Shown piece by piece: positions 1-29,155 of a DNA stretch of 64,000 nucleotides; within the stretch, counting starts at the first letter, position 1; each line of letters begins with the position of its first letter. The DNA lies in the UHGV virus genome UHGV-0468246; one strand, 5' to 3'. Below the pieces are notes generated by a model that was not told where the DNA came from, did not search any database, and saw only the letters and a program-made list of their open reading frames with translations. The stretch comes from a virus. The translations under genes and the position numbers were made by a program.

Positions 1-2592
1 CGAGAGGGTCGTGGTTGACTTGACGACGATGGTTGCGGCATCGCCGTCAGCGCCCTTCGCGCCGGTAGCGCCCCTGTCGCCCTGCTCGCCCTTGTCGCCC
101 TTCGCGCCGGTCTGTCCGACGGGGATGCCGAAGTCGAACACCGCGTTCGACGACGTTCCCGCGTTCGTCACCGTGGGCGTGCTGCCCGGTGCGAGCTGCT
201 TCACCGTGCCGACGGCGACGGTCGCCGCCAAGCCCGTGTCGCCCTTCGCGCCTGTGTCGCCCTTGTCTCCCTTCGCGCCCGTAGCGCCCTGCGGTATCCC
301 GAAGTTGAACTGCGCGGCAGATGCCGTGCCTGCGTTCGTGACGGTGGCGCTGCTCCCCGGAGGCAGGGTGGTGACCGTGCCGACGGCGACGGTCGCGGCG
401 GTTCCCGGTATGCCTTGGTCGCCCTTTGCTCCCGTGTCGCCCTTCGGCCCCTTCTCGCCGGTGTCGCCCTTGTCTCCCTTCGCGCCAGTGCCCCCCTTCG
501 GGATGCCGAAGTCGAAGCGCGCTGCGGTCGCCGTGCCGACGTTGGACACCGTGGGCTGCGAGCCTGCGGGGAGGCTCGTCACGGTGCCGACCGTTATGGT
601 CGCGGCGGTGCCGGGAACGCCCTGCGCGCCCTGCGGTATGGCGAAGTCGAGGATTGCCGCGTTCTCGGTGCCCTTGTTCACGACGGATGCGGGAGACCCG
701 GCAGCGCCGGTCGTGACCGTGCCCACGTCTATCGTGGCCGCTTGGCCCTGCGCGCCCTGCGGGCCGCGCTCTCCCTGCGGGCCGGGGTCGCCCTTCTCGC
801 CTTGCACGCCCTGCCCCCCTTGCGGGCCGCGCTCTCCCTGCTTGCCCTCGACCAAGCCGAAGTCGAGCACCGCCGCGCTCGCCGTGCCCTTGTTCTCGAC
901 AGTCGGCGAGCTTCCCGGAGGCAGCGATGTGACCTTGCCCACCGACACCGTTGCAGCGTCTCCCTTGTCGCCCTTCGCCCCCGTGTCGCCCTTGGCACCG
1001 GTGTCGCCCTTGTCGCCCTTGGGGATGGTGAAGTCGAGCACGGCGGAAGAGGACGTTCCGGAGTTGACGATCTGGGCCTCGCTCCCGGCAGCGCCGGTGG
1101 TGACCGTGCCGACCGACACCGTTGCAGCCTGTCCAGGTATTCCTTGGTCGCCCTGCGGGCCTTGGTCGCCCTGCGGGCCTTGGATTGGGCCGACGTTCCG
1201 CCAGTCGTTCGTGCTCCCGGCGACCCACACCCACAAGTCGCCCTTGATCGTGTAAGCGTCGCCGACCTCGCCCGTGGGATGGGCCGCCTTCAGCTCCTCG
1301 TAGGAGCCGTACATTCCTTTGATGACGACGCTCGTGCCGTCGGCACCCTTGTCGCCGGGGTCTCCCTTGTCGCCCTTGGGGCCTTGGGGTATGCCGAAGT
1401 TCAGCAGCGCCGCGTTCTGCGTGCCCGCGTTGTCAACGGTCGCTTGGCTTCCGGCAGGGAGCGTCGTCGTGGTTCCAACGGTGATCGTGGCCGCTTGACC
1501 CTGCTGCCCTTGCGGCCCCGTGTCGCCCTTCGCGCCCGTGTCGCCCTTCTCGCCCTGAACCAAGCCGAAGTCGAGCACGGCGGAAAGCGACGAGCCGGAG
1601 TTCGTCACAGTGGGCGAGCTTCCCGGAGGCAGCGACGTGACCTTGCCGACCGTTACGGTCGCGGCCTGTCCGGGCGCGCCCGTGTCTCCCTTGTCGCCCT
1701 TCGCGCCGTCTTGGCCCGCAAGGCCCTGCAGCCCTCTCTCGCCCTGTATGCCCTGTATGCCCTGCGGGCCTTGGGGTATCGTGAAGTTGAACACCGCGTT
1801 CGTGGTGTCGCCGGAGTTCGTGACCTGCGCTGCCGTGCCGGGGTCTCCGGTCGTGACGGTGCCCACCGCGATGGTGGCGGCTATGCCGGGGTCGCCCTTG
1901 TCGCCTTGCACGCCCTGCAACCCCTGCGGGCCGCGCTCGCCGGTGTCGCCCTTGGGGCCTTGCTCGCCCCTCTCGCCTTGGTCGCCCTTCGGGCCTTGCT
2001 CTCCCTGCGGCCCCCTCTCGCCCTGTATGCCCTGCGGCCCCTGCTCGCCCTGCTCGCCCTTGTCGCCCTTCGCGCCCTTGGGCAGGAAGAAGTTCAGAAC
2101 GGGGTTCTGCACCGTGCCGGTGATCGTCACCTGCGGGGTGTCCGACGTTGCGACGGTTCCGATGGTGAAGTGCGGTATCAGCTCGCCGCTGTCGAGGCGG
2201 TCGTTTATCTCCTTGATCTGCGCGTATATCTGGGCGAGAATCTTGTTGAACTCGTCCTGCGTCTGGTTCACCTCGTAAAGGTGGGCGCGCATGATGCGGC
2301 GGGCGAACGCGATGTAGGCCACGCGGTAGAACTTCGTGTTGTAGTCGTAGGCGAGGAAGTCGCCCATGATGTCGGTTATGGTCTCGTCGGCTGGGTTGAC
2401 CACGTAGTGGTCGCTGATCTCGTTCGCCTTGATGTCAACCTGCTGCTTCTGGTCTGGGTCGAAAATCTCGTCGATCTTCGCGCACAGCGCCGCGAGGTCG
2501 GTCACTTCCAAGACCTCGTACAAAGCGCCCGTGAGGGTGTTCGTAATCCAGTCGCCGAGATTGACGGCTGTTCCGTTCTTGTCTACCAGCAT
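1..2592 (-). CDS. Tail fibre protein with collagen-like Gly-X-Y repeats and repeated ~40-aa beta modules. C-terminus lies outside the window.
   Basis: Minus-strand frame with ATG at 2592 preceded by AAGGAG. My translation starts [15 protein letters not shown] and continues into [22 protein letters not shown]... Gly-X-Y runs alternating with AATVxVGTVTxLPxGS modules. The ORF track lists no stop in this frame, so it runs off the window start. ORFs 11..1255(+), 47..1234(-) and 415..2631(+) are shadow frames of the repeat. Confidence 0.8.
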
Positions 2593-2667
2593 CTCGCGCT
2601 CCTTCAATCCGATGTTGCCTCCATTGTATGAAAAAGGCGGGGTTCGCGCTATGGAGCTGGCGCGCCC

Positions 2668-2699
2668 TTGACATACGTTGCCCCCCCCCCAGTTACGAT
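2668..2699 (+). promoter_or_regulatory. Promoter of paralog unit 1: TTGACA (2668-2673), C10 tract (2681-2690), TACGAT (2694-2699)
   Basis: A consensus -35 hexamer, then a 20-nt spacer containing a 10-C homopolymer, then a TANNNT -10-like hexamer. It sits 35 nt upstream of a GGAGG ribosome-binding site and the ATG at 2735. The same layout recurs upstream of all four paralogs. Confidence 0.55.
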
Positions 2700-2734
2700 A
2701 GTCCCGAAACGGAGGCTGATGCGGAGGAGCGGCA

Positions 2735-3175
2735 ATGGCGGTGTTGAAGTATCGAGGTTCGGGCGGAACTATCCAGACCCTCTTGGACGTGACCGGCACG
2801 CTGGCGCGCATCGGCGCGTTGGAGACGAAGACGAACAACCTCCAAACGACCGTCAACACCCTCAACGCCTCCTCCGGCTGGAAAAGGCTGTCGAAGAACT
2901 GCTGGTACAAGAAGGTCGGCCTGTGGTGCATAGTCCAATGCGACTACATAAGCCTGTCGGCGAGCACGTGGAAGACCCTCGGAACCCTCCCTGCCGGTTA
3001 CAGGCCGGTGATCACGGGGCTGACCGACGAGTTCAAAGTCGTGTCGGGCGCGGCGTTCCATCGCGGCGAGAACAACATAGGCCTAATCGAGATTAACGGC
3101 TCCGGCGTGGTGAGCATGTACGCGACCGTCGCGAGCGATTATTGGTCTGCGAACATCGTGTTCCCCTGCGCTTGA
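2735..3175 (+). CDS. Paralog 1 of a tandem small-protein family (146 aa). Conserved N-terminus MAxLKYRGxGG, variable C-terminal domain.
   Basis: ORF preceded by a GGAGG ribosome-binding site. The first ~35 aa resemble those of the ORFs at 3230, 3783 and 4288; the C-terminal ~110 aa are divergent. Confidence 0.65.
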   Translation: MAVLKYRGSGGTIQTLLDVTGTLARIGALETKTNNLQTTVNTLNASSGWKRLSKNCWYKKVGLWCIVQCDYISLSASTWKTLGTLPAGYRPVITGLTDEFKVVSGAAFHRGENNIGLIEINGSGVVSMYATVASDYWSANIVFPCA

Positions 3176-3202
3176 CATTCTTTGCCCCCCCCCAGTTACC
3201 AT
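3172..3202 (+). promoter_or_regulatory. Promoter of paralog unit 2: TTGACA (3172-3177), C9 tract (3185-3193), TACCAT (3197-3202)
   Basis: Same layout as unit 1 with a 19-nt spacer containing a 9-C tract. GGAGGG ribosome-binding site, then ATG at 3230. Confidence 0.55.
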
Positions 3203-3229
3203 TGTCTGGTAAACGGACGGAGGGCTGCA

Positions 3230-3730
3230 ATGGCGAAGTTGAAGTACCGCAAAGGCTCTGAAATATTCGAGATTTTCGACACGGACGACATCAAGGCGCT
3301 CCAAACGAAGGTGGACGAGGTGCCAAGGCTCCCGACGTTCGGCTCGACCTCCGGCAACTGGCCCTTCGGAGTGGTCTACTGGAACGTCAGCGCCGACAAG
3401 AAGCGCCTGTCGCTCCATGGGAACATCTACTTCGACAGCTGCGGCGACGCGTGGAGCGCCATGAAGGCGATACCGGGCGGAGCGTCGAACGAGTGGGGCT
3501 TGCAGGTCGCAACTCCGCTCGGAGCGCAATCCAAAGCCCTCTGGATACCTGCCGTCGGCTTCTCCACCACGAACTCCACCATATCGGCCCAGAACTTCGG
3601 TCGCCTTACCATGAAGATAGGCACCGACGGCTACTGCTACGTATTCCCGACGACGACAAAGCCGGAGGGCGACGGCCCGTTCTCGTGCTTCATAGATTGC
3701 TGGTACATGAGCATAGCGGACTACGCTTGA
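3230..3730 (+). CDS. Paralog 2 (166 aa). Starts MAKLKYRKG, with a Trp/Tyr/Cys-rich C-terminal domain.
   Basis: The track ORF 3182..3730 begins at a TTG inside the poly-C tract. The ATG at 3230, preceded by a GGAGGG ribosome-binding site, is the likely start. The N-terminus matches the paralog family. Confidence 0.65.
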   Translation: MAKLKYRKGSEIFEIFDTDDIKALQTKVDEVPRLPTFGSTSGNWPFGVVYWNVSADKKRLSLHGNIYFDSCGDAWSAMKAIPGGASNEWGLQVATPLGAQSKALWIPAVGFSTTNSTISAQNFGRLTMKIGTDGYCYVFPTTTKPEGDGPFSCFIDCWYMSIADYA

Positions 3731-3757
3731 CATTTTCTGCCCCCCCCCTGTTACGAT
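3727..3757 (+). promoter_or_regulatory. Promoter of paralog unit 3: TTGACA (3727-3732), C9 tract (3740-3748), TACGAT (3752-3757)
   Basis: Same layout, 19-nt spacer. Ribosome-binding site AAGGAAGGG, then ATG at 3783. Confidence 0.55.
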
Positions 3758-3782
3758 CTTCGCCGATGAAAGGAAGGGTCGA

Positions 3783-4226
3783 ATGGCTATCATCAAGTAC
3801 AGGGGCAGCGACGGCGTTGTCGAACTGCTCGACGTGGGTGCGCTGCTGGGGCGGGTGAGCGGCTTGGAGGCCAAGACGGCATCGTTCGAGCGGGCGACAT
3901 CGGGGATATGGAAATACGAGAAGCGCTCCGACGGCACCTGCGTCTGCGAGGGCCAGCAGACGCGCACGGTCAACATAGAGAACATATATTCGGGGAACAT
4001 CTACTACGGCGACTTCGCCGCCGTCTCGTTCCCCAGCGGGCTGTTCACCGCAGTGCCGGACGTTCGCGCGACGATTCAATCGGCACCAGTGACCGTGTGG
4101 GTCGCGACGGTCTCGAACTCGAAGCCGTCAACGTCGTCAACGCAGGCGGTGCGCCTGCTGTCGGGCGGCCCGGAGACGAGCATATCCGTCACGGTCTCCT
4201 ACCGCGCGGTCGGTCGCTGGAAGTAG
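3783..4226 (+). CDS. Paralog 3 (147 aa). Starts MAIIKYRGSDGVVELLDV.
   Basis: ORF with a ribosome-binding site. Conserved N-terminus and a distinct C-terminal domain. Confidence 0.65.
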   Translation: MAIIKYRGSDGVVELLDVGALLGRVSGLEAKTASFERATSGIWKYEKRSDGTCVCEGQQTRTVNIENIYSGNIYYGDFAAVSFPSGLFTAVPDVRATIQSAPVTVWVATVSNSKPSTSSTQAVRLLSGGPETSISVTVSYRAVGRWK

Positions 4227-4228
4227 CC

Positions 4229-4259
4229 TTGACTTTCCGTGCCCCCCCCCTGTTACGCT
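4229..4259 (+). promoter_or_regulatory. Promoter of paralog unit 4: TTGACT (4229-4234), C9 tract (4242-4250), TACGCT (4254-4259)
   Basis: Same layout. Ribosome-binding site GGAAGGGAGAGGG, then ATG at 4288. Confidence 0.5.
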
Positions 4260-4287
4260 TTCCCGAAACACTCGGAAGGGAGAGGGA

Positions 4288-4761
4288 ATGGCGAAGCTGA
4301 AGTACAGGGGCACGGGCGGCGTGGTCGAGCTTCTTGACATCTCGAACGTTCTCAACCGCCTGTCGTCGCTCGAAGCCAAGATGACGGCGGTCGAGACAAA
4401 GCTGACGGTCAAGTCCGACGGTTTATGGCGTTATCTCGTCCTCGGCTCCTTCGTCATCGGATGGCGCACCGACCGTTTCGTCGTGCCGCAATGGAACTCG
4501 TGGGGCAATCTCTGGGAAAGCTCCGCAAAGCTCTCTTCGGTCATCTATCCGGGCGGCTATCAGGGGAAGTTCTCGCAAGTCGCCCTGTTCTGCAACGCCA
4601 AGAACGTCGGAGAGGTCACATCGTGCGGCGTGGAGTTCGAGGACAGCTCGACCCCGGACGTTCTCAACAAGTTTCCCAGCGTGTACCTGCTGCGCCCGAA
4701 CAACGCGGGCACGAACGTGACGTACGACGTGTACCGCATGTTCATAGGTCAGCTCAAATGA
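4288..4761 (+). CDS. Paralog 4 (157 aa). Starts MAKLKYRGTGGVVELLDISNVLNRLSSLEAK.
   Basis: ORF with a ribosome-binding site. Its N-terminus is closest to paralogs 1 and 3. Confidence 0.65.
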   Translation: MAKLKYRGTGGVVELLDISNVLNRLSSLEAKMTAVETKLTVKSDGLWRYLVLGSFVIGWRTDRFVVPQWNSWGNLWESSAKLSSVIYPGGYQGKFSQVALFCNAKNVGEVTSCGVEFEDSSTPDVLNKFPSVYLLRPNNAGTNVTYDVYRMFIGQLK

Positions 4762-4845
4762 CGGCTTGACAACCTCCGCCCCAGCTGAACAGAACGTCGT
4801 ACGCGACCGAAGTGCCCGTCAACTTGATTGGCGGCGTAAAAAAAA

Positions 4846-4867
4846 GAACCCCTCTCGCGAGGGGTTC
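4846..4867 (-). terminator. Rho-independent terminator after the endolysin gene
   Basis: Hairpin GAACCCCTC-tcgc-GAGGGGTTC, followed on the minus strand by a T8 run (complement of the A8 at 4838-4845). Confidence 0.75.
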
Positions 4868-4883
4868 TTCATTCGCTGCGGCT

Positions 4884-6053
4884 TTACAGGTAGATGACCT
4901 GACCGGGGTAGATCACGTTCGGGTCGGAGATGCCGTTCTTCGCGGCGAGGCCCATGTAGTTGGAACCCCAGCCGTTGCTCGCGGCGATTGCGGAAAGGTT
5001 GTCGCCCTCCCGAACCGTGTAGGTTCCGCCTCCGCCGACCTCCGCCGCCGCGCCGCCGTTGGTCAGGGCGATGTTGCCGATGTCGATGGCTGCGGTCACC
5101 TGACCGTCTCGACCGATCACCGCGCGGCGACCGTCCAGCTCCATCACGACGTAGGTGCCGTGGACGGCGAGCGGGGTGCCGTTCTCGTCAACGGGCGTGA
5201 CGACCTTGACCAGCGAGCCGACCGAGATTGTCGGGGAGCCGCCGGAGCCGCCGCCGACCTTCGCGAGGTTGGAAGCGTCGATGGCCGCCGTGACCTGACC
5301 GCCGCGACCGATCACGATGCGGTTGCCGGACACCTCCATCACCTCGTAGGTGCCGGAGGTCGCGAGCGACGTGCCGTTCACATCGACGGGGTTGGTCACG
5401 GTCACGATGTCGCCGACGCTGAAGGAGGCCGACGGCGCTGGCTCCGGGGAAGGCTCCGGCGGCACGTAGCTGCCGCCGTGAATCTCCTGCGGGAAGTCCC
5501 TGTAGCACTCGTTCGCGTCCAGAGGGCCGATGCCGCCGATGTAGGCGGTCGAGGTGTACTGCCAGATGTCCGCCGTGCCGTTGTAGGACAGGTCGGCACC
5601 GTACTCGGCGACCCAAGCGGTGTAGGGCAGGATGCGCATGTCCTGCGCGTTCGCGTTGTAGCGCCCGGTGTACCAGCCGAACCAGTACCCGGCGGCCTCG
5701 ATCTGCGGGCCGACGACCTCGCACGCGCGACGGTAGAACCATTCCAGACCCGCCTCCTCAACGTCGAGGTAGGCGGGGAAGCCCATCTCGGACGGGTCGG
5801 GGAGCAGGCGCAGCATGTGGGCCGCCTCGCTGTTCGCCATGGAATCGTTCGACGCGTAAGAGTACAGGTACACGCCGAAGGGGATGCCGAGGCGCTTGCA
5901 CTCGGACATGTTGCGATGGTACTGCCGGTCGTCTTGGTTCGCGTAGTCGCTGCCGTAGCCGCAGGACAGGATTGCCCCGTCGATTCGGCCCACGAGGGCA
6001 TCCCAGTTGATGGTGCCCTGATGGTGCGATACGTCGATGAGCGTCATTGTCAT
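4884..6053 (-). CDS. Endolysin: GH25 muramidase, two ~50-aa internal repeats, C-terminal LysM
   Basis: N-terminus IDVSHHQG...GVYLYSYA matches the GH25 lysozyme signature. Two repeats of the form G(D/S)IVTVTNPVD..GT...GTY.VME. The C-terminus YTVREGDNLSAIAA...YPGQVIYL is a LysM domain. Confidence 0.85.
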   Translation of the reverse strand: MTMTLIDVSHHQGTINWDALVGRIDGAILSCGYGSDYANQDDRQYHRNMSECKRLGIPFGVYLYSYASNDSMANSEAAHMLRLLPDPSEMGFPAYLDVEEAGLEWFYRRACEVVGPQIEAAGYWFGWYTGRYNANAQDMRILPYTAWVAEYGADLSYNGTADIWQYTSTAYIGGIGPLDANECYRDFPQEIHGGSYVPPEPSPEPAPSASFSVGDIVTVTNPVDVNGTSLATSGTYEVMEVSGNRIVIGRGGQVTAAIDASNLAKVGGGSGGSPTISVGSLVKVVTPVDENGTPLAVHGTYVVMELDGRRAVIGRDGQVTAAIDIGNIALTNGGAAAEVGGGGTYTVREGDNLSAIAASNGWGSNYMGLAAKNGISDPNVIYPGQVIYL

Positions 6054-11774: not shown

Positions 11775-11849
11775 TGGCACCCCCGGTAGGAATCGAACCT
11801 ACGACCTGATTCTTAGGAGGAATCTGCCCTTCCGCTGGGCTACGGGGGT
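11775..11849 (-). tRNA. tRNA-Arg (anticodon CCT)
   Basis: Cloverleaf: acceptor ACCCCCG/CGGGGGT, U8 A9, D arm GCCC-AGCGGAAG-GGGC, anticodon arm GATTC-CTCCTAA-GAATC, T arm GTAGG-TTCGATT-CCTAC, discriminator G and an encoded CCA. Confidence 0.85.
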
Positions 11850-12086
11850 GCGTTTTCAATGTTTCGTCCGGGAGGGTGTACGGCCCTCCCGGCTCCGGGC
11901 ATCCCCGTCGCGCTTGCCCGCTCTCCTCCCTCCACGGGAGGCGCGTACATGGGCGCTCCGAACGCCGTTGGGCGGGCATTGCCCCGCCGCCGCAACGGTA
12001 CGCGTACCTCGCTCCGGCGCGTTCGTCCTTCGTGCGCGCCGCCGAGCGTCTTATCTCGCCGGTGCGTCGCCCATGTTACCACACTT

Positions 12087-12129
12087 CTTAACTCTTGTCT
12101 TAACTTTTTCTTTCTTTTTTTTATCTTAC
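12087..12129 (-). repeat. AT-rich intergenic motif copy, minus orientation, with a TGTGGTAACAT extended -10-like box at 12073-12083
   Basis: Minus-strand reading GTAAGATAAAAAAAAGAAAGAAAAAGTTAAGACAAGAGTTAAGAAGTGTGGTAACATGG. Same architecture as the copies at 19928, 25001 and 29121. Confidence 0.55.
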
Positions 12130-12138
12130 AAAAGAAAG

Positions 12139-12156
12139 GCCCGCGATTGCGGGCCG
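12139..12156 (-). terminator. Hairpin GGCCCGC-gatt-GCGGGCC with a T-rich tail, next to an AT-rich motif copy
   Basis: Stem-loop followed on the minus strand by TTTCTTTTGT. Confidence 0.5.
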
Positions 12157-12167
12157 TGGCTTCAGTC

Positions 12168-12245
12168 CGGGAGGGCGGGAATCGAACCCGCACATGCTGT
12201 ACCTGTTATGGCGCGCCCAGTGCTCTGCCGTTGAGCTACCTCCCG
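12168..12245 (-). ncRNA. tRNA-like element with acceptor stem, D arm and T arm but no canonical anticodon stem
   Basis: CGGGAGG/CCTCCCG acceptor pairing, TA at positions 8-9, D arm GCTC-AACGGCA-GAGC, T arm GCGGG-TTCGATT-CCCGC. The ~30 nt in between (containing the GGCGCGCC palindrome) cannot form a 5-7-5 anticodon arm by my reading. CCA is not encoded. Confidence 0.4.
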
Positions 12246-12426
12246 ATGCATGGGAAGCGCCGGAGGAAGGTGCAATGCGCACCGTTCGGGCGCTTCCCAA
12301 GTTCGCTGCGGGTGCCCTCGCCGTCCGCAGTCAGGATGCCCACCGATGATGACTTTCGGCATCCTCCCTCGCCCCTCTGCGCGGCCCGTTCGCAGCGGCC
12401 CGTGCTCGGAACCCGCGTTCGGGAAA

Positions 12427-12649
12427 CTACCGGATAACGGCGTCCTCCCACCGCGTACCCCGCTCGCCTCCCCTGCGAAAGTCGGCCACGGGGGTGCCTT
12501 CGTGGATGCGCGCGAGCGTCACGTCCGATTCGTCCATAGCCCTAGCCATCGAAGGCCTAGCGCCACATCCCAAGGCATCAGCTTCGTCGCTGACGGAAAG
12601 TCGAGGGCGGGGAGCTGCGGGCCGACGATGCGACGGCGCGCCCCTCATC
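12427..12649 (-). CDS. Possible small Arg-rich protein (74 aa), or part of a structured non-coding region
   Basis: AAAGGA ribosome-binding site plus ATG at 12649, immediately after palindrome copy 2. Low confidence: the surrounding 12250-12700 is GC-rich and may be non-coding RNA. Confidence 0.2.
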
Positions 12650-12672
12650 CTTTCGGGCAGAACGGCGCAACC

Positions 12673-12688
12673 TCGATTAAATAATCGA
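12673..12688 (-). promoter_or_regulatory. 16-bp palindrome TCGATTAAATAATCGA (copy 2) inside the tRNA / non-coding region
   Basis: Perfect inverted repeat, followed on the minus strand by GGTTGCGCC...AAAGGATG. Confidence 0.5.
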
Positions 12689-12756
12689 CATGTCGCATCA
12701 ACCGCCCTCGGCCTTCCGTCAGCGGGCACCTTTCGATGCCGCGCTGTTTGTCCGTA

Positions 12757-12831
12757 TGGTACGGGGTGCAGGTGTCGAACCTGCGGCCAAGGAATTATGA
12801 GTTCCCTGCTCTACCGTTGAGCTAACCCCGC
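12757..12831 (-). tRNA. tRNA-Met (anticodon CAT; initiator, elongator or Ile2 cannot be told apart by eye)
   Basis: Acceptor GCGGGGT/ACCCCGT with a G1-U72 wobble, U8 A9, D arm GCTC-AACGGTA-GAGC, anticodon arm GGGAA-CTCATAA-TTCCT, T arm GCAGG-TTCGACA-CCTGC, discriminator A, CCA encoded. Confidence 0.85.
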
Positions 12832-19883: not shown

Positions 19884-19927
19884 AACGGCCTCCTTTCGTC
19901 CTCGTGCGATCTTACCACATTCCTTCA

Positions 19928-20979: not shown

Positions 20980-21206
20980 GCCTTTCTCCGCACCACGGGC
21001 AGAACGCCATGCCCTGCCCTTTGAGAACGTTCACCGAATCTAAGCACTCGCAATCATAGTCGAAGTCGATGTCCCGGAGGCCGAGTACCCATTGCCCGTC
21101 GGGAAAGGACGAACGCCCCTCATCGGGCCGGTATCTCCGGAGCGAGAAGCCCTTCGGCATCTTCCGGCACCGGTGCGTCTCGAAACCTGCATGTCGCGGG
21201 TCTCCG

Positions 21207-21415
21207 TCAGTCATAGCTCCACTCCCCCAACTCCACTTCCTCTCCGCAATGCGGGCACTCCACGCTCCCCCAGTCGTCCTGCCAGCATTCCGGCTCGTCA
21301 ACGTCCTCGAACGGCACGCCGGTCTGCCATCTGCAATGCGGGCACGTGAACGTGATGTCCACCGGCGCGCTGTTGATCGTGAAGTCGGCCTTCTCCTCGC
21401 GGCTCGTCATATCCT
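21207..21415 (-). CDS. Small zinc-ribbon protein (~69 aa, MTSREEKADF...)
   Basis: CPHCRW...CPHCGEE motif. C-terminal part of the track ORF 21207..21860. Confidence 0.4.
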
Positions 21416-21853
21416 TCCACCGTTCCTCTCCCTCGCGGCCTTTGCGCGAATCTCGGCGTACATGCGCTCCTCGTCCTCGCGCAGTATGCGGTAGGCGAGC
21501 CGCAGCTGTTCGAGGTCGAAGTAGCCGAAATGGCACTCCTCGACGGGTATGCCCATCCTGCCCGCCAGCCATTCGTACTGGCGCGTACGCTCCTTGCGCT
21601 TGTTCGGAGCGCCCAGCCACCGCCTGTCGAACAGCCGGTGGCAGAACTGCTTGCCGAGCCTCATGCGGTCGTCGGCCAGAAGCCCGAACGCCTCCTTCGG
21701 CCTCGGCACGTGCGTCCCGACGTACGCGCCGCACTCCGTGCAGCGGTAGCACCACCCGCTGCCGCGCTTGATGCCGTACACCTTCCTGTTGGGCACGTAC
21801 TCGACGCGCCCGCCGCACAGGTTGCACACGGTCGGCCTCTTCGGCGGAATCAT
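21407..21853 (-). CDS. Hypothetical zinc-finger protein (148 aa)
   Basis: CNLCGG...CYRCTECGAY motif. Confidence 0.45.
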   Translation of the reverse strand: MIPPKRPTVCNLCGGRVEYVPNRKVYGIKRGSGWCYRCTECGAYVGTHVPRPKEAFGLLADDRMRLGKQFCHRLFDRRWLGAPNKRKERTRQYEWLAGRMGIPVEECHFGYFDLEQLRLAYRILREDEERMYAEIRAKAARERNGGRI

Positions 21854-22650
21854 GCGCCAAGCTCCTTCCTGAACGCGCGGGATACCGCCTCGAACAGTAT
21901 GCCGTCGAGGAGCGCGTCCACGCTCTCGTCCGTTCTAAGGCCCCGTTCCTCGCAGAACGCGTCCGCCTTCGAGGAGATGCGCCTGCACGCCTCCTGCGCC
22001 GTCTCCGTGGCCTCTGCGGCGGTCATGCCGTCCCCGTCCCTCTTCACGCGAAGCAGCTCCGGGTGTCCCGACATGTCCAAGCACTCGCCGTAGGGCGCTC
22101 CCGCGACGTATCGGTCGATCATGATGTCGAGGCGCAGGATGTGGGAGAGCTGCTTCGGGTCGTAGCCGTAGCGCTCTATCCAAGGCATGCGGCTCGGGTA
22201 CTCGTGCGTGAGCGCGTTCAGCTTCTCGTGCGCCATGCCCTTCATGCACTTGACCGCCCGACCGGGGCAGTAGCGCGCGATCTCCTCGCGGCGGCGCAGC
22301 AGCTCCATCCACAGGTCGGCGTAGTCGTGGTTGAACAGGTGCCACTCCGTGAACAGAATCTCAACGAAGTTCACGTTCTGCTTGCGGAACGTCTTGAAGT
22401 ACTCGCGGATGTCCTTCACGTCGCAGTGCTCGCCGTTGCCCATCACGTGGGTGCGGCTCACCGCCTGACGGTTCAGCACGACATCCTCGAAGCATGGCAG
22501 CACCAGCAGCTTGCTGTCGATGTCGCTGCCCTCGTCGGAAAGCCCGTAGTTCTGCGAGCCTTGCAGGCAGATGGCGAACCAGTCGCCGCGCGCGTTTTTT
22601 TTAGATTCCTCCAAGTGCTCCGCGAGCCTCGCCGTCGGCAGGTCTTCCAT
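21850..22650 (-). CDS. Nucleotidyltransferase-fold protein (266 aa)
   Basis: GSQNYGLSDEGSDIDSKLLV fits the GS...D.D motif of DNA polymerase beta-type nucleotidyltransferases. Confidence 0.5.
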   Translation of the reverse strand: MEDLPTARLAEHLEESKKNARGDWFAICLQGSQNYGLSDEGSDIDSKLLVLPCFEDVVLNRQAVSRTHVMGNGEHCDVKDIREYFKTFRKQNVNFVEILFTEWHLFNHDYADLWMELLRRREEIARYCPGRAVKCMKGMAHEKLNALTHEYPSRMPWIERYGYDPKQLSHILRLDIMIDRYVAGAPYGECLDMSGHPELLRVKRDGDGMTAAEATETAQEACRRISSKADAFCEERGLRTDESVDALLDGILFEAVSRAFRKELGA

Positions 22651-22828
22651 ACTCTCTCCTCCTATCGTTCCAGAAGCGGACGGCGCGCTCGGGGTCGTTC
22701 AGGAAGCCCGTCTGGTTGCCGCACGCCTTGCAGCGCACGAACCACCTTGGCGGCTCCGTCCGGCCCGTCGCGTAGAGCGCCGCGCCGCCGCCGCATCCGC
22801 ATCGCTCTATTCTACTGGTAGATGTCAT
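22601..22828 (-). CDS. Lar-family restriction alleviation protein (75 aa)
   Basis: RCGCGGGAALY...WFVRCKACGNQTGF...AVRFWNDRR matches the Lar zinc-ribbon pattern. Confidence 0.6.
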   Translation of the reverse strand: MTSTSRIERCGCGGGAALYATGRTEPPRWFVRCKACGNQTGFLNDPERAVRFWNDRRREYGRPADGEARGALGGI

Positions 22829-23741
22829 AGTTCTCGCAGATTTCGCTCCAATTTTGGATAAGCCCCTGATAGCCGTCGCGCAGGTCGCGCAGCGTGCCCT
22901 TCTCCTCGTTCTCGCGCATCAGCACGTCGCGGTACAGCTCCTCGTCCCGGTACATCCGGACGTTCTCGTCTATGAGGCGGCTGATGACGCTGGGGTCGAG
23001 CGCGTCAAGCTCCCAGCATTCGTAGCCGAACCGCTCGATGTAGCCCTGCGCGCGGCTGTCCGACAGCTTCGTCGGGTTCGGCGGAGGCCCGAACTCCTCG
23101 ATCTGGTCGAGGTTCAGCGCGAGGCGGCGGAACTCAACGTCGTCGGCACTGAACAGCTCCAAGCGCGCCACGATGTCGCGGCTCATGTCCTTGCCGCTGG
23201 GGTCGTGGTCGCCGAGGTGCAGCAGCACCGCGTGCTGCCCAGCGTCGCAGCGCCGCTTCAGGCGCATGGCCGCTCCCCACAGCTCGCTCTGGCTGGTGTA
23301 GCCACGGCACGAGAAGCACGCAACGTCCAGCTTGTCGCTGATCTGCTCCACGATGCCTATGAGCGCGTCCTTCTCCACCCACACCTCGACGTAGTTCTCC
23401 TGCCCCTCCCAGTAGTCGATGTGGTACTGGCGGGCTATCGCGTCGATGATCTCCTGCGGCTCCTCCCAGTGCGGGCGGCGGCGCAGGTTGCGCGTGCGGT
23501 CTTCGATGGCGTGCCAATCGACGAGGCCCGCCAAGCGCGCGTCGTTGATGAGGTTGCCGAGGTTCTTGTAGCTGCGGATGTTGTTCGGGATGATGTCGCG
23601 CGACACCATCTGGTAGTAGAGCTGGCGCAGCGTCAGGCCGTACCCCTGCGCCTCGTACTCGGCCACTATGCCGTTGGCTATGCCGATGAGTTCCAGCTTG
23701 TCGTCGCGGAACGTCTTCTCGATGTACGCTATCTTAGGCAT
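22812..23741 (-). CDS. Spo11 / topoisomerase VI subunit A-like protein (mini-A, 309 aa): CAP tyrosine motif plus Toprim
   Basis: LRQLYYQMVS matches the R(D/Q)(I/L)YY catalytic-tyrosine motif. VEVWVEKDALIGIV carries the Toprim glutamate (vvEKd). HLGDHDPSG matches the Toprim DxDPxG motif. It overlaps the stop of the upstream GHKL gene by 8 nt. Confidence 0.6.
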   Translation of the reverse strand: MPKIAYIEKTFRDDKLELIGIANGIVAEYEAQGYGLTLRQLYYQMVSRDIIPNNIRSYKNLGNLINDARLAGLVDWHAIEDRTRNLRRRPHWEEPQEIIDAIARQYHIDYWEGQENYVEVWVEKDALIGIVEQISDKLDVACFSCRGYTSQSELWGAAMRLKRRCDAGQHAVLLHLGDHDPSGKDMSRDIVARLELFSADDVEFRRLALNLDQIEEFGPPPNPTKLSDSRAQGYIERFGYECWELDALDPSVISRLIDENVRMYRDEELYRDVLMRENEEKGTLRDLRDGYQGLIQNWSEICENYDIYQ

Positions 23742-24948
23742 CCTCGCCCTCCTTCTCCAAAAGCCCGTCTATCTCGTCGCGTATGAGGTGCATGCCGAAG
23801 AACCGCAGGTCGTCCGAGTTGTCGATGATCTCGCGAAGCTCGGCGCGCGCACGCTTCGACAGGCGCGGCTGCCCTTTGAGCCAGACGAGAATCTTCTTGT
23901 AGTCGCTCTTGCCGAAGGCGTTGACTGCGGCCTCCCTGCTGGCGTTCGACGACACCTTCGCCTCCAAGTCCTCGAACTCGTCGAGCGCGTCGTCGGCGAT
24001 GGCGATTATCTTGGAGACGATCTTGCTCTCCTCGTGGAACGCGCTCGCCTCGGCGCTGCCGCCGAGAACCTGCCACATGCCCTTCGTCCCGACGAACGTG
24101 CCCTCGTCAAGCCCGTTCTTCTCGAAGTAGTAGCGCTTGAAGCCCTCGCACTGGTCTTCGTCTATCTCGTCGAGGACGGCGCTTGCGTCGGACACGTCCA
24201 GATGCTTCTCGCCGAGCGAGTTGACGAGCAGGCTCACGTCCCCGCACGACGTGAGGGCGCGGGCCGTAAGCTCCTTCAGCTCGTAGTGGTTGATCGCCTT
24301 GCGGTCTCGGTCGAGGCTCACGTGCTCCGGCAGGAAGTCGTAGCCGTACGCGAAGCCGGTGTCCTCCTGCACGAACAGGCCGCCGACGTAGAACTTGCCC
24401 TTGTAGCGGCTCTCCAACATGATCGTCCCGTACTCGCTCTCGCGCTTCGCGCCGATGTCGCGGCCCATGAAGCGTTCGAGGGCTATGAACCTGTCCCCGA
24501 AGGAGCGCATCATGGCGGGCGAGATGCCGCCGATGCGGAACTCCGTGAACTCGCCGCCCGGAACGCCGGTCTCCTCCACGTCGATCTGCAACGATTCCTC
24601 GCCGAACGTCTCGGACAGGCGGAACTCCGGTGTCCAAGTCTCCGCGTCGGTGACGACCTTCACCGGCTTGCGCTCGCGCGTCAGCACCAGAAGCGCCAGC
24701 TTGTATCCCTCGCCGTACTTCCCGATGTAGCGCTCGTCGTCCTTGCCCGATTCGCCGAGCAGGAGCGTCGATGTCTTCAGTCGCGCGCCGTCGGTGAGGA
24801 TGGACAGCGTTTCGCGGTCGTACGACACGGACACCTCCGCCCCGTCCGCCTTCTGGTCGATGGCGTTCTGCAAAATCTCGCGGACTGCCTCCTCCACGCC
24901 CCAGCCGCTCACGTACTTGGGCGACAGGCTCAACTCGATGGTCTTCAT
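23734..24948 (-). CDS. GHKL (Bergerat-fold) ATPase, topoisomerase VI subunit B-like (404 aa)
   Basis: N-box EILQNAIDQ and G2 box IGKYGEGYKLAL. Lies immediately upstream of, and translationally overlapping, the Top6A-like gene. Preceded by ribosome-binding site, palindrome, -10-like box, AT-motif and terminator. Confidence 0.55.
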   Translation of the reverse strand: MKTIELSLSPKYVSGWGVEEAVREILQNAIDQKADGAEVSVSYDRETLSILTDGARLKTSTLLLGESGKDDERYIGKYGEGYKLALLVLTRERKPVKVVTDAETWTPEFRLSETFGEESLQIDVEETGVPGGEFTEFRIGGISPAMMRSFGDRFIALERFMGRDIGAKRESEYGTIMLESRYKGKFYVGGLFVQEDTGFAYGYDFLPEHVSLDRDRKAINHYELKELTARALTSCGDVSLLVNSLGEKHLDVSDASAVLDEIDEDQCEGFKRYYFEKNGLDEGTFVGTKGMWQVLGGSAEASAFHEESKIVSKIIAIADDALDEFEDLEAKVSSNASREAAVNAFGKSDYKKILVWLKGQPRLSKRARAELREIIDNSDDLRFFGMHLIRDEIDGLLEKEGEDA

Positions 24949-24962
24949 GGCCCTCCTTGCTC

Positions 24963-24978
24963 TCGATTAAATAATCGG
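24963..24978 (-). promoter_or_regulatory. 16-bp palindrome copy 4 (TCGATTAAATAATCGG) between the TGnTAAGAT -10-like box (24988-24998) and the ribosome-binding site of the GHKL gene
   Basis: Read on the minus strand: CCGATTATTTAATCGAGAGCAAGGAGGGCCATG. Confidence 0.6.
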
Positions 24979-25000
24979 CCTTGACCCATCTTACCACAAG

Positions 25001-25050
25001 CCTTAACTCTTGTCTTAACTTTTTCTTTCTTTTTTTATCTTACAAAAGAA
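25001..25050 (-). repeat. AT-rich motif copy, minus orientation, beside the terminator hairpin at 25053-25075
   Basis: Near-identical to the copy at 12087 (CTTAACTCTTGTCTTAACTTTTTCTTTCTTTTTTTATCTTACAAAAGAAA). Confidence 0.6.
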
Positions 25051-25052
25051 AA

Positions 25053-25075
25053 GGGGAGGGCTTGTGGCCCTCCCC
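25053..25075 (-). terminator. Hairpin GGGGAGGGC-ttgt-GGCCCTCCCC with a T-rich tail on the minus strand
   Basis: Stem-loop followed on the minus strand by TTTTCTTTTGT. Confidence 0.55.
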
Positions 25076-25076
25076 G

Positions 25077-25407
25077 TCACCACGCCGTCTGCCTGCGGAA
25101 CGGGCATCTCGTCCGAGAGCACGACTTCCTCGCCACCTCGACGGCGCAGCACGTGTTCGCCTGATCTCCGCACATAGGGGACGCCACGTGCCAGCCGGGG
25201 CCTAGAACCGTTTCGGCCAGCCGGTCGAGGGCGGCCTGCGCGTCGGTCGGCTGCGGCATGATGCCGTAGTCCCCGCCGTTGCCGGTCGCCCCGCTTTCGT
25301 CAACGAACGAGAGCGTGATCTGATACCCTCTGTTTATGTTGTCCATCTGCTGGTCGAAGTCCTTCTTCTCCATCTTGGTCGGGAACTTCGCCTCCATGCT
25401 CCCGCAT
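25077..25407 (-). CDS. Hypothetical protein (~110 aa, MEAKFPTKMEKK...)
   Basis: C-terminal part of the track ORF 25077..25616 from its first plausible ATG. Confidence 0.4.
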
Positions 25408-25414
25408 GCCGCCG

Positions 25415-26118
25415 TCACCCTTCGCATGCCCCTCCTATCTCCTCCAACGTCCTGCGCTTCATGTTGCCAAGCACCTCCTCCATGGCGACGAGCCGCCGCC
25501 AGCAGTCTGGCAGGTTCTCCTTGATCGCGCGCAGTTCCTTCTGGTTCTTGTTCTTGCAGCACCAGCACGACACCCTGTCCAAGATGTCGTACAGGCGCAC
25601 GCCGTCCTGCTCCCACTCATGGCCGTGGGCGTAGCACGCGGCGAGGCAGTCGGCCTCGCGCATGCCCCAGTCAGCGAGCGGGAAGCGCTTGTAGGGCTTG
25701 CGCTCCTTTTCGAGGCGCGCCGTCTCGTCTGCGGCTATGCCGACGTACACGGTCGCCCCCCCCAGCTCCCTCTCCGCATGGCGGTCTATCGCCCGCAGCT
25801 TCTCGGTCGTGCCCCAGCGGCACGGGCCGCCGCACCAGCCGTAGCCGTGCTTGTGGACTTCGCCGGTCTTCCGGCTTTTGACCGGGCGGCAGAACATGCT
25901 CCACCAGAACGGGTCTTTGGGGCGCAGCTCGACGTAGCGGATGCCGTTCTCGCGCAGCAGCGGCAGCATGCGGTCGCGCTCGGCGTAGATCGCGTCGAAC
26001 TCCATGCCCGTGTCGTAGAAGACAACCTCGTCGAGCGGCATGCCGCGCTCGATCAGGCCGTGCAGCATGGCGAGGCTGTCCTTGCCCCAGCTGACGCTTG
26101 CGATGCAGCGCTTCATGG
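25415..26118 (-). CDS. PAPS reductase / PP-loop ATP pyrophosphatase family protein (~234 aa)
   Basis: Probable start MKRCIASVSWGKDSLAM. The SWGKDS motif matches the PP-loop SGGKDS, followed by a CWCC cysteine cluster. An internal G8 tract (plus C8 at 25756-25763) encodes LGGAT. Confidence 0.65.
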
Positions 26119-26279
26119 CTACCCTTCCCTCTCGTCGGCGCGCCTGCGCCTCGCGGCCCTCTTGTCCTGCTCGGCCTTGCACTCCGGGCCGCAGTATTTC
26201 TGGTTGCGGGAGTTCTTCGCGAACGTCCTCCCGCACACCGGGCACGTCCCCGTGCCGCGCGCCTTCCAACCGGTCATCC
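26119..26279 (-). CDS. Small zinc-ribbon protein (~53 aa, MTGWKARGTGTCPVCGR...)
   Basis: C-terminal part of the track ORF 26119..26559. Confidence 0.35.
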
Positions 26280-26657
26280 CTCGCTCCTCTCCCTCGGCAT
26301 CCCTCCACGGTAAAGCCCCGCCTCCTTCAGTCGGCGCAGGGCGAGCCGCTGCCTCGCGTTGCACCGCCCTAGGGCGCAGTCGTTCCACACGGCCACGCAC
26401 CGGGTCATCTCGCACAGAGCGTCCATGCACCCGCAGGCGGGCAGCACGTCCCACGCCTGACCCTGCTCGACGAAGCCGCGCAGGCGCATCAGCTTGCGGA
26501 CGAGCCATTCCTGATGCGACGGGACGGCGTAGTGCGGCGTTCCTCCCTCGTCGATGCACACCTCCAAGTAGTTCACGAAGGTCGCCTTGTGCGTCTCGAT
26601 GTCGAAGGGGGAGCGCAGCACGCGCTGCTGCTCCGACGCTCCGGGGAGGCTACTCAT
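26274..26657 (-). CDS. Hypothetical protein (127 aa)
   Basis: ORF. Confidence 0.45.
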   Translation of the reverse strand: MSSLPGASEQQRVLRSPFDIETHKATFVNYLEVCIDEGGTPHYAVPSHQEWLVRKLMRLRGFVEQGQAWDVLPACGCMDALCEMTRCVAVWNDCALGRCNARQRLALRRLKEAGLYRGGMPRERSEG

Positions 26658-27075
26658 CGTCCGTCTCCGTGGTCATCCAGTCCTCGACGCTGCCAAGCTC
26701 GTCTGCGGCGCACAGGATGCGCGCGAAGGGGTACTCCGGCACCTCCATGTCGCCAGCCGCCTCCAAGCCGATCACGTCGTTCAGGAGGTCGTTCGCCTCC
26801 GTGACGGCGGCGCGCCAGTCCTTCTGCGCATCGACGCTCCCGTAGGTCGCCTCGAAGATGTCGGGCTTCACGGGGTACAGCTCCCCCTTGATGCCCTTCA
26901 CGATGTAGTCGCCCTTGCGCGCCGTCATGCTCCCTTCGAGCGTGCGCACCTTCGCCTCGCCGTCCGGGGTCAGGCGCAGAACGCCGCTCTCGAACGCGAC
27001 GTGCCCCCACTCCGGGGTCGCCTCCTCGCCGTAGCGCCACGCCTCGATCTCCAACGGCTTCTTCCTGTACCTCAT
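26650..27075 (-). CDS. Hypothetical protein (~141 aa, MRYRKKPLEIEAWRYG...)
   Basis: ORF. Confidence 0.4.
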   Translation of the reverse strand: MRYRKKPLEIEAWRYGEEATPEWGHVAFESGVLRLTPDGEAKVRTLEGSMTARKGDYIVKGIKGELYPVKPDIFEATYGSVDAQKDWRAAVTEANDLLNDVIGLEAAGDMEVPEYPFARILCAADELGSVEDWMTTETDDE

Positions 27076-27323
27076 CGCCCCTCCTCGTTTTCGCACTCGT
27101 CGCATCTGTCGCTCGTCGGCTCGTAGTCTCTTATCCCCAAGTCGAGCCAGTCGCGCAAGATGCGCAGCTTGCGCGTGTCGGGTTCCTCGGGGATGACGGC
27201 CTCGTAGCGGCCTCTCTCGTCTTCCAGCTCAATTCTCGGCATGTCGGCGCTCCTCTCAATCAGTCTCGTACCGCTTGATGTCCTCGCGCCAGCGCAGCTC
27301 GTCTCCGAACCCAACGCCTTCAA
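27072..27323 (-). CDS. Hypothetical protein (83 aa)
   Basis: ORF. Confidence 0.35.
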   Translation of the reverse strand: MKALGSETSCAGARTSSGTRLIERSADMPRIELEDERGRYEAVIPEEPDTRKLRILRDWLDLGIRDYEPTSDRCDECENEEGR

Positions 27324-27477
27324 GCTCGCCCGTGGAGACCACGCGCCCCTCGTCGTCCAGAGGGTACAGCGCCGTGTTGCCGTCGAACAGCGACACGACG
27401 GCTATGCGGTGCTTCAGCGTGAGGGCGGTCAGGTCTTCGAGGAACGCCGCAGCGTCCCTCGCGTCAGTCGTCCCCAT
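27256..27477 (-). CDS. Hypothetical protein (73 aa)
   Basis: ORF. Confidence 0.35.
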   Translation of the reverse strand: MGTTDARDAAAFLEDLTALTLKHRIAVVSLFDGNTALYPLDDEGRVVSTGELEGVGFGDELRWREDIKRYETD

Positions 27478-27757
27478 CGCAGCCGCCCTTCGGCTCGTCG
27501 AGCGCGGCCTGCGCGTCGCGCAGAGCGTCGGCGACCATGCGCCCCATGCGCCTAGCCCAGCAGAACAGCAGGAAGGCGCACAGCACGAGGAACGAGGCGT
27601 AGCACAGGAAGCCCCATGCCGCCCCGAACATCACGCCAGCGCCTATGGAGCCTACCAGCCCCGCAGCTCCGAACAGCAGGCCTCCCAGCAGCCACGAGCA
27701 GCCGATCAGCGCGTCCCCGTCCTTGTCGCTCTTGCTCACGTCGAACTCCATCCTCAT
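27464..27757 (-). CDS. Small membrane protein (97 aa, two predicted transmembrane segments)
   Basis: Two hydrophobic stretches: LIGCSWLLGGLLFGAAGLVGSIGAGVMFGAAWGFLCYASFLVLCAFLLF. Confidence 0.45.
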   Translation of the reverse strand: MRMEFDVSKSDKDGDALIGCSWLLGGLLFGAAGLVGSIGAGVMFGAAWGFLCYASFLVLCAFLLFCWARRMGRMVADALRDAQAALDEPKGGCDGDD

Positions 27758-28221
27758 CGCTCGCCCTCCGGCTCCGTCGGAAGCTCAATCCACCTCTTGC
27801 AGTTCTCCACGTTCTGGGAGAACGACAGCAGCACGTCGTCCCAGCCCTCCCCGTCGGGCGGAGGGCCGAAGCTGCAAGACACCCCGGTCTCGTGCCTCTC
27901 CCCCGTGATCGTCATGACGTAGGACAGGCGCGGCTCCTCCGCCCCGTCGCGCTTCAGCACGTCGAAGGCGTACTCGATGCCTATGGGCGTTCCAAGCCTC
28001 GCCTCCTCGCGCACCTTGGCGCGCATGCGCTCGACGACGGCCACGAACTCGTCCGGCACCCCCGCCTCGCGCATCTCCTTCTTCCACGCCCTCGGCCCCG
28101 GCTCAACGCCGGGGACGTACCGCTGCATGCTGACCGGCCCTTCCATCACAGCCCCTTCCTGTGCTCGTCGTCGAGGCGCGCGTACTCCCTGCGCTCCTTC
28201 TGCGTCGATGCGCGCAGGCAC
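27754..28221 (-). CDS. Hypothetical protein (155 aa or shorter)
   Basis: ORF. Confidence 0.4.
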   Translation of the reverse strand: MPARIDAEGAQGVRAPRRRAQEGAVMEGPVSMQRYVPGVEPGPRAWKKEMREAGVPDEFVAVVERMRAKVREEARLGTPIGIEYAFDVLKRDGAEEPRLSYVMTITGERHETGVSCSFGPPPDGEGWDDVLLSFSQNVENCKRWIELPTEPEGER

Positions 28222-28493
28222 GCCTCGGCCTCCTCGTCCGACACGTCGAGGCCGATGCCGTCGGGCGTGCGGAGCACGATGCGGCGCAGCCCGTTCTTCA
28301 ACGTGTACTTCATGTAGACCTTGACCGGCGTTCCCTCCGGCGTGACCACGGGCGCGCCGTCCTCCCCGTAGGTGGTCAGGTCGCAGTCGAGGGCGTAGAC
28401 GCTCCCCATGCGCTTAGTCATCGGCCCCTCCGATCTCCGCGTAGCAGCCGGGCCGCCAGCGCTCGCCCTCCACGTCCTCGGGCAGCGGCGCAA
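28146..28493 (-). CDS. Hypothetical protein (115 aa or shorter; likely starts MTKRMGSVYALD)
   Basis: ORF. Confidence 0.4.
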   Translation of the reverse strand: MRRCPRTWRASAGGPAATRRSEGPMTKRMGSVYALDCDLTTYGEDGAPVVTPEGTPVKVYMKYTLKNGLRRIVLRTPDGIGLDVSDEEAEACLRASTQKERREYARLDDEHRKGL

Positions 28494-28908
28494 CGGGGCG
28501 GATGTGCCCGTGCGAGACGTGCAACATGTCGCAGCGGTTGCCCAGCGGCTTCAGCTCCTCCATGGCGCGAAGGGCGCGCCGCACGGTCTCCGGCAGCTTG
28601 CGCGCGTCGTCGCGCACGCCGACCGAGATGCGCAGGGAGCGACCGTCGAACGGCACGCTTTCGTACGGGCAGACGGCCCTGCCGCATGACAGCTGCGCGC
28701 AGAACTCGACCGTCGTGCGCATCTCCTCGCCCTCGATCTCCCCGGACGTGTTGCCGTAAAGAAGGTAGCCGCCGATCTTGCCGTTGCCCTTCGCCTCGCG
28801 CAGCATGTTCGAGCAGCGGCGCACGGCATCGACGCTCTCGTCGTCGTCGATGCCGAACGCCTCCAAGAAGCGCTTGGCCTCCTTCAGCTCCTTGCCGTTG
28901 CCTCTCAC
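28414..28908 (-). CDS. Hypothetical protein (~164 aa, GTG start)
   Basis: AAAGGAG ribosome-binding site plus GTG at 28908, directly downstream of palindrome copy 5 (28924-28939). Confidence 0.45.
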   Translation of the reverse strand: MRGNGKELKEAKRFLEAFGIDDDESVDAVRRCSNMLREAKGNGKIGGYLLYGNTSGEIEGEEMRTTVEFCAQLSCGRAVCPYESVPFDGRSLRISVGVRDDARKLPETVRRALRAMEELKPLGNRCDMLHVSHGHIRPVAPLPEDVEGERWRPGCYAEIGGADD

Positions 28909-28939: not shown

Positions 28940-29120
28940 GCCGTCGTGCTCGCCTTCGTCGGCCACAAGGCACTTGTCGTCCCCCGTCGGCGACGTAGAC
29001 GAGGAACATGGCGCTCGCGCGCAATACCTCCTTCTCGTCCCCGTCGCCCATGCCCGTGATGCTGATCTCCAAAACGGTCTCCTTCCGCTCGGTTTCGCGA
29101 TACGGTCATCTTACCACAAG

Positions 29121-29155
29121 TCTTACACTTTTGTCTTAACTTTTTCTTTTACAAA
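29121..29155 (-). repeat. AT-rich motif copy, minus orientation, with a TGTGGTAAGAT -10-like box at 29108-29118
   Basis: Minus-strand reading GTAAAAGAAAAAGTTAAGACAAAAGTGTAAGACTTGTGGTAAGATGACCG. Confidence 0.55.

Follow-up and report, generated by a model that had tools for sequence, protein, structure and literature searches.

We studied two neighbouring genes in a 64,000-nt stretch of the virus genome UHGV-0468246 (the window, i.e., the whole stretch of DNA that was analysed), one coding for a putative GHKL-type ATPase of 404 amino acids (aa) and the other for a 309-aa protein of the Mini-A subfamily. In the list of open reading frames (ORFs) both lie on the minus strand, the ATPase gene at 23734..24948 directly upstream of the Mini-A gene at 22812..23741. 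A first-pass annotation had read them as the B and A subunits of a split type IIB topoisomerase. Comparison of homologous loci favours another reading, which we consider probable: Mini-A and the stand-alone GHKL ATPase are two independent, dispensable accessory genes, adjacent by shared ancestry in one small clade of phages. Their probable independence is read from the near absence of co-occurrence elsewhere and from independent loss (see below). Mini-A is abundant in phages (at least 8000 relatives in the protein search, versus ~670 scored for the ATPase) and uncharacterised, and the question is whether it acts alone or with an ATPase. This is the first locus found in which a Bergerat-fold gene directly precedes Mini-A, an arrangement that the discoverers of the family reported never seeing. 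By the comparative evidence the adjacency is most likely incidental, a result that cautions against annotating pairs of this kind too readily as 'split Topo VI/VIII'.

The window carries phage replication and tail genes, and in its DnaE-type polymerase it shares 99.9% identity with Eggerthella phage LE2-3. Judging from sequence, the window is from a relative, of ~117 kb, of this lytic phage of Eggerthella lenta. The two genes overlap as the first-pass annotation described: the ATPase gene ends in ...GAG GAT GCC TAA and the Mini-A gene starts with ATG CCT AAG, the eight bases ATGCCTAA being common to both (23734..23741, minus strand, read in the sequence).

Co-occurrence of the two genes in other phages

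Takahashi et al. (2019, NAR Genom Bioinform; PMC7671362), who named Mini-A as a viral Top6A/Spo11-like subfamily, found no Bergerat-fold 'Mini-B' beside Mini-A genes. We found no published report of a 'Mini-B' or GHKL partner for Mini-A, nor of these genes in the Eggerthella-phage literature. Since no 'Mini-B' beside Mini-A was reported in that paper or in the later literature that we searched, co-occurrence was the decisive test. IMG/VR loci, taken as ±8 kb around each gene, were searched by tblastn and profile hidden Markov models (HMMs) with filters off: the ATPase was found in none of 64 Mini-A loci, and Mini-A in none of 19 ATPase loci. Of the 69 larger ORFs located within 1.5 kb of a Mini-A gene, none had a G2 box after a GHKL N box. 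Further ATPase loci from genomes and metagenomes, each with at least 1 kb of downstream sequence, contained Mini-A in only 5/45 cases, and all five were copies of the window phage (at least 95% identity). Mini-A was absent from ~60 ATPase loci outside the close clade of the window phage, and ATPase homologues at 58, 57, 50 and 41% identity had unrelated small genes downstream. The cultured phages (114 records with the ATPase and 85 with Mini-A) had no accession common to both among the matches listed, and neighbour clustering revealed no conserved partner for either gene. The ATPase gene does not stand invariably in tandem with an A-subunit gene, as a Top6B or 'Mini-B' gene would. The lack of B/A pairing in homologous phages, which the first-pass annotation had itself named as telling against a split B+A topoisomerase, speaks against that proposal.

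Within the clade, the order ATPase then Mini-A was present in at least three diverged lineages, namely the window species, L087 (ATPase 64%, Mini-A 68% identical) and L169 (65% and 74%), and the adjacency is therefore ancestral to this small clade. At least two losses of Mini-A have left the ATPase intact. In L084-086 (ATPase 69%) the ATPase gene is directly followed by a nucleotidyltransferase gene without Mini-A; in L084 this junction is the identical ATGCCTAA overlap, the nucleotidyltransferase likewise starting with 'MP'. In L170 (ATPase 67%) Mini-A is reduced to a 50-aa remnant at 1260-1412, made up of the N-terminal 33 aa and a C-terminal tail. In L101, an unrelated temperate phage, a Mini-A just as close (68%) occurs without the ATPase, and the gene with which it overlaps by 8 bp codes for 66 aa. 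Coupling is argued mainly from the overlap, which is generic, since the same junction is made with the nucleotidyltransferase in L084 and an overlap of this length with another gene in L101. Three gene orders were seen in the clade: ATPase-Mini-A-Lar-nucleotidyltransferase-DUF3268, ATPase-nucleotidyltransferase-DUF3268 and ATPase-Mini-A-DUF3268; as compared here, this is ordinary mosaicism. The C-terminal domain of the ATPase is not better conserved beside Mini-A (51.5% in L087, where Mini-A is present, versus 55.7% in L084, where it is absent). At 5599-5603 of L169 the Mini-A start codon reads AAG and not ATG, with the frame still open.

Dispensability and natural deletion alleles

Both genes are part of a 7.6-kb variable accessory block (21010..28584, minus strand), delimited by comparison with LE2-3. 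This cultured phage, whose host is E. lenta DSM 2243, has a circular genome of 111,961 bp (MW679026.1) that is 97-99% identical to the window up to 21009 and from 28585 on. Where the block would be, it carries 581 bp of unrelated sequence, with one coding sequence crossing the junction. The circular record and the coding sequence across the junction ruled out an assembly break as the reason why the block is missing. The block is present in metagenomic contigs of ~117 kb. From this alignment, 21010-28584 is a hypervariable, dispensable accessory island and, because LE2-3 is without the whole block, the ATPase and Mini-A would both be dispensable.

Assemblies from NCBI, ENA and Logan yielded deletion and frameshift alleles of the pair. 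In one in-frame fusion allele, ATPase aa 1-121 are joined to Mini-A from ~aa 57, with Tyr43 gone (junction 24582|23575, ~3-bp repeat); in a second, ATPase 1-166 are joined to Mini-A from ~aa 190 (junction 24448|23187, 12-bp exact repeat GCCGCGACATCG). The fusions occurred in near-identical copies of the phage (loci L094-L097 and L116) from four independent assemblies, and frameshifted ATPase alleles were found in natural populations (P0011). Assembly artefacts were ruled out as the source of the fusion proteins, given the four independent assemblies and junction repeats (12 bp and ~3 bp) shorter than assembler k-mers. Over ~20-27 kb of the window, two independent metagenomic copies showed a skewed spectrum, with 318/340 substitutions being A>G or T>C in L100 (Logan SRR32733628) and 235/309 in L097 (ENA ERZ927130); the other copies had balanced spectra. 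The skew resembles hypermutation confined to A:T-to-G:C changes, or else an artefact in the data.

The 309-aa protein

A profile search matched the 309-aa protein to phrog_6247 ('DNA topoisomerase') with E=1.6e-111. It is 42-51% identical to 'DNA topoisomerase' proteins of Pseudomonas, Xylella, Salmonella, Brevundimonas, Listeria and other phages, and archaeal virus HCIV-1 was also among its matches. Pfam and NCBIfam gave no match, and the family had none among PDB chains in sequence and profile searches. Mini-A proteins are defined as viral or proviral A subunits of ~300 aa, missing the 5Y-CAP's N-terminal half but bearing RxxY/FY and the Toprim E and DxDxxG motifs; an xWELDAL T2BI box tells them from Topo VI and Topo VIII (PMC7671362). 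All of these sequence features were found in the 309-aa protein. The catalytic motif LRQLYYQMV contains R39-Q-L-Y42-Y43, beginning at residue 39, with R39 and the catalytic Tyr43; the Toprim block VEVWVEKDAL holds E119/E123, and HLGDHDPSG holds D178-H-D180-P-S-G183. The T2BI box, C242-W243-E-L-D-A-L248 (CWELDAL), was not among the motifs cited in the first-pass annotation. Residues R39, Y43, E123, D178, D180, G183, W243, E244, D246 and A247 were invariant in 29 diverse homologues (32-68% identity). The structure model had a predicted local distance difference test (pLDDT) value of 73, from an alignment built of database homologues of lower diversity.

By its motifs, the 309-aa protein is clearly an ordinary member of the already described Mini-A subfamily. 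It agrees with the description of Takahashi et al. in size, RxxYY motif, Toprim E and DxDxxG, xWELDAL and phage origin, with no essential difference; what differs is the Bergerat-fold gene preceding it, never seen by those authors, and this neighbour is not conserved. The first-pass annotation was right to call it a Spo11/Top6A 'mini-A', as both the phrog_6247 match and the full set of Mini-A motifs indicate. Its remark that a type IIB topoisomerase in a phage is at most rarely described overlooks the phage Mini-A subfamily, published in 2019 (PMC7671362). By analogy with Top6A and Spo11, Mini-A would act as a homodimer, with the WELDAL box probably at the dimer interface. Tyr43, positioned by Arg39, would attack DNA, and Mg2+ would be held by Glu123/Asp178/Asp180. 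From the transesterification chemistry of the family, the outcome would be DNA cleavage and religation without ATP.

The 404-aa protein

The 404-aa protein matched phrog_6077, a family with no annotated function, with E=1.2e-68 over aa 1-279, and its cultured-phage homologues matched the same family with E values down to 1e-134. Against Pfam and NCBIfam, it gave HATPase_c_3 and the sacsin ATP-binding domain, both sub-threshold. Sequence and profile searches of PDB chains gave only a marginal match with MORC4 (E 0.54). The N box EILQNAIDQ (E24/N28/D31), the G2 box GKYGEGYK (G76/G79/G81) and a motif LDRDRKAIN at aa 212-220 were invariant in 53 homologues. The G1 box (DxGxG) is non-canonical in the family: its Asp position is occupied by N, T or S (T52 in this protein), and conservation is also lacking at the second Gly. 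All motifs quoted in the first-pass annotation were found in the 404-aa and 309-aa proteins as cited, but its claim of a 'full motif set' of a type IIB topoisomerase was overstated, since the N and G2 boxes and the A-protein motifs are present and the G1 box is degenerate.

The AlphaFold2 (AF2) model of the protein was confident (pLDDT 88) and comprised a GHKL domain (aa ~1-160), a small beta-rich second domain of GHL type (~161-237), which contains the LDRDRKAIN motif, and a helical variable C-terminal domain (238-404). Structure matches of the model included TRAP1/Hsp90 at 10.4, MORC2 at 9.7 and MutL at 9.5. Top6B was not the best match. Among predicted viral structures, the best matches were uncharacterised phrog_6077-type proteins (template modelling (TM) score 0.6-0.7), next in rank came a long series of rIIA proteins (E ~1e-7), and a single viral type II topoisomerase appeared at rank 34. 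The named viral proteins closest in structure are accordingly the N-terminal modules of rIIA, although no rIIA PHROG matched the ATPase at E<=0.01. The Bergerat fold assigned in the first-pass annotation is supported, within the limit set by the degenerate G1 box, by the invariant N and G2 boxes and the GHKL fold of the model. As modelled, the 404-aa protein is a genuine GHKL/GHL-type ATPase of phrog_6077 and not specifically Top6B-like: an H2TH domain, a long transducer with a switch lysine and Top6B as nearest fold, which together would mark a Top6B, were not found. Glu24, the catalytic residue, Asn28, which binds Mg, and the G2 lid are all retained in the protein. The LDRDRK loop of its second domain probably senses the gamma-phosphate and, as in its family, the protein would cycle through ATP-driven dimerisation.

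The relatives in phrog_6077 are stand-alone phage GHKL ATPases ('histidine kinase-like ATPase', 'sacsin-beta sandwich'; precomputed Pfam matches of MPN635_N type) with the same invariant motifs and, like the 404-aa protein, they occur without a constant neighbour in regions of early or replication-accessory genes. The helical C-terminal domain (aa 238-404) is restricted to the branch from Firmicutes and Actinobacteria phages, whereas the cultured Proteobacteria-phage members align with the 404-aa protein only over aa 1 to ~270. With rIIA (700-800 aa) the likeness is only structural; the 404-aa protein is about half that size, and no rIIB partner was seen (none was searched for). Unlike proteins with type IIA ATPase modules (T4/T6 gp39, ParE/GyrB 43K, Topo II), it has neither a Toprim nor a cleavage core. 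Identity with the rIIA and type IIA modules was only 10-16%.

Relation to type IIB topoisomerases and alternative readings

The 309-aa protein has the same 5Y-CAP tyrosine, Toprim metal site and T2BI box as Topo VI (Top6A2/Top6B2) and Spo11/Top6BL. The pair also resembles Topo VI in its B-then-A gene order and in the GHKL fold and second domain of the 404-aa protein, but this protein has no recognisable H2TH domain, its G1 box is degenerate and the gene pairing is not conserved. Topo VIII is likewise an enzyme of mobile genetic elements, with a length similar to the combined ~710 aa of the pair. In Topo VIII, however, the T2BI box is RVELNAM (WELDAL in Mini-A here), a conserved Arg occupies position Tyr+3 (V46 here), and the enzyme is plasmid-borne, fused or split, whereas the pair studied here is phage-borne and its ATPase is from another family. 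The RVELNAM box, the Arg at Tyr+3 and a plasmid location, which together identify Topo VIII, were not found in the 309-aa protein or the window.

Some observations weigh against the independence of the two genes. In the window species, L087 and L169 they are not only adjacent but co-oriented and overlapping, and this conserved adjacency, together with the topoisomerase-like fold ranking of the ATPase, keeps a clade-specific partnership alive. In addition, the authors of the 2019 study explicitly left open that a non-canonical 'Mini-B' may remain undiscovered (PMC7671362). A phrog_6077 ATPase might accordingly have been recruited as such a 'Mini-B' in the Eggerthella-phage clade, forming a split type IIB topoisomerase, a possibility that we regard as doubtful. 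In such an enzyme, itself an unlikely one, ATP-induced dimerisation of the ATPase would power the passage of strands through the Mini-A dimer (A2B2) and so aid in decatenating or relaxing the 117-kb genome. That the ATPase would bind the Mini-A dimer by its helical C-terminal domain, which is specific to the clade, and thereby make the enzyme ATP-dependent is a similarly improbable proposal. The adjacency with its 8-bp overlap, kept in three lineages, and the catalytic residues retained in both proteins are what such an enzyme would call for. It is at odds with the lack of pairing outside the clade, the intact ATPase after loss of Mini-A in L084 and L170, the generic nature of the overlap, the degenerate G1 box and the growth of LE2-3 without either gene; moreover, Mini-A has no N-terminal 5Y-CAP segment, the part that binds Top6B (PMC7671362). 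If true, Mini-A would here have been found to work with a partner ATPase for the first time, and the pair would capture a stage in the association of B with A subunits; an interaction of the two proteins would be relevant to how type IIB topoisomerases arose. The locus suits experiment, with two small proteins and natural phage variants with and without each gene.

Less likely still, the two proteins might cooperate in an activity other than that of a topoisomerase, as an ATP-gated nuclease or as a counter-defence or exclusion module in an anti-defence island. Analogues for such a module, which we judge just as improbable here, would be GHKL-regulated nucleases such as MutL, MORC-type systems or MksG/JetD, the Top6A-like nuclease of Wadjet. 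Genes resembling Tad8 (30.1 bits) and Lar in the same block (see below), the likeness of the ATPase to rIIA N-terminal modules and the variable, dispensable nature of the block would fit this proposal, but it meets the same absence of co-occurrence as the topoisomerase. PADLOC models gave only insignificant matches with both proteins, which also speaks against it. That both genes are decaying passengers without current function in the window phage seems very improbable: deletion, frameshift and fusion alleles are frequent in nature (P0011, P0023-33, P0070) and LE2-3 has neither gene, but both ORFs of the window are intact with every family-invariant catalytic residue kept, a predicted dedicated promoter and a ribosome-binding site (RBS) lie upstream, and orthologues at 64-74% identity are still full length, which points to purifying selection. 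We thus retain the reading of two independent accessory genes, under which, in almost every other phage, either gene would function in the absence of its neighbour here.

Upstream control region and other genes of the block

A terminator scan, a repeat search and reading of the sequence delimited a control region upstream of the ATPase gene (24952..25075, minus strand). It comprises, all on the minus strand, a terminator-like hairpin (25075-25053, terminator scan), a promoter-like element ending in TGTGGTAAGAT (25022-24988, repeat search and alignment) and the RBS AAGGAGG of the ATPase gene (24958-24952, sequence reading). An AT-rich tract with two TGnTAAGAT boxes also belongs to the region, as does an imperfect palindrome, CGATTAtTTAATCG, read downstream of these boxes. 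The regulatory DNA listed in the first-pass annotation (terminator, AT-rich motif, TGnTAAGAT box, palindrome and RBS) is thus all present, the palindrome being imperfect.

The repeat search and a four-site alignment placed the ~45-bp element (GAAAAAGTTAAGACAAGAGT.TAAG...TGTGGTAAGAT) at four intergenic minus-strand sites (12073-12091, 19909-19927, 24988-25006 and 29108-29126), where chance would give 0. Downstream of three copies lie an AAGGAG resembling an RBS and a putative start codon, and at least two copies have a hairpin upstream. Because the element recurs at four intergenic sites, three of them followed by an RBS-like sequence and a start codon, we take it as a candidate repeated phage promoter, with the ATPase gene as predicted operon head. 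Both genes would then stand at the head of an operon driven by this promoter, inside the 7.6-kb dispensable block.

Other genes of the block were DUF3268 (21407-21853, by annotation), a nucleotidyltransferase (21850-22650; phrog_388, E 1e-13), a Lar-like gene (22601-22828; weak match, E ~2e-4 to 6e-4) and a PAPS-reductase-like gene (25415-26116; phrog_424, E 2e-30). The nucleotidyltransferase, PAPS-reductase-like and Lar-type flanking genes had been named in the first-pass annotation and were recovered here, the last by its weak match. Immediately upstream of the ATPase operon, a Tad8-like gene (25077-25373, minus strand) codes for a 98-aa product whose match to Pfam Tad8 (Type II Thoeris inhibitor; E=4e-7) exceeded the gathering score with 30.1 bits; we regard this gene as an anti-defence candidate.

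In L084/L086, a reverse transcriptase gene (RVT_1) lies beside a gene for a 1051-aa collagen-repeat protein (~393-4984), ~1-2 kb upstream of the ATPase gene; this pair may be a diversity-generating retroelement. ARAGORN called three tRNA genes at 11775-12831 of the window (minus strand), i.e., tRNA-Arg(CCT), tRNA-Met(CAT) and an unusual one whose anticodon has four bases (cgcc). The last, at 12165-12246, either overlaps a copy of the promoter repeat or lies directly next to it.

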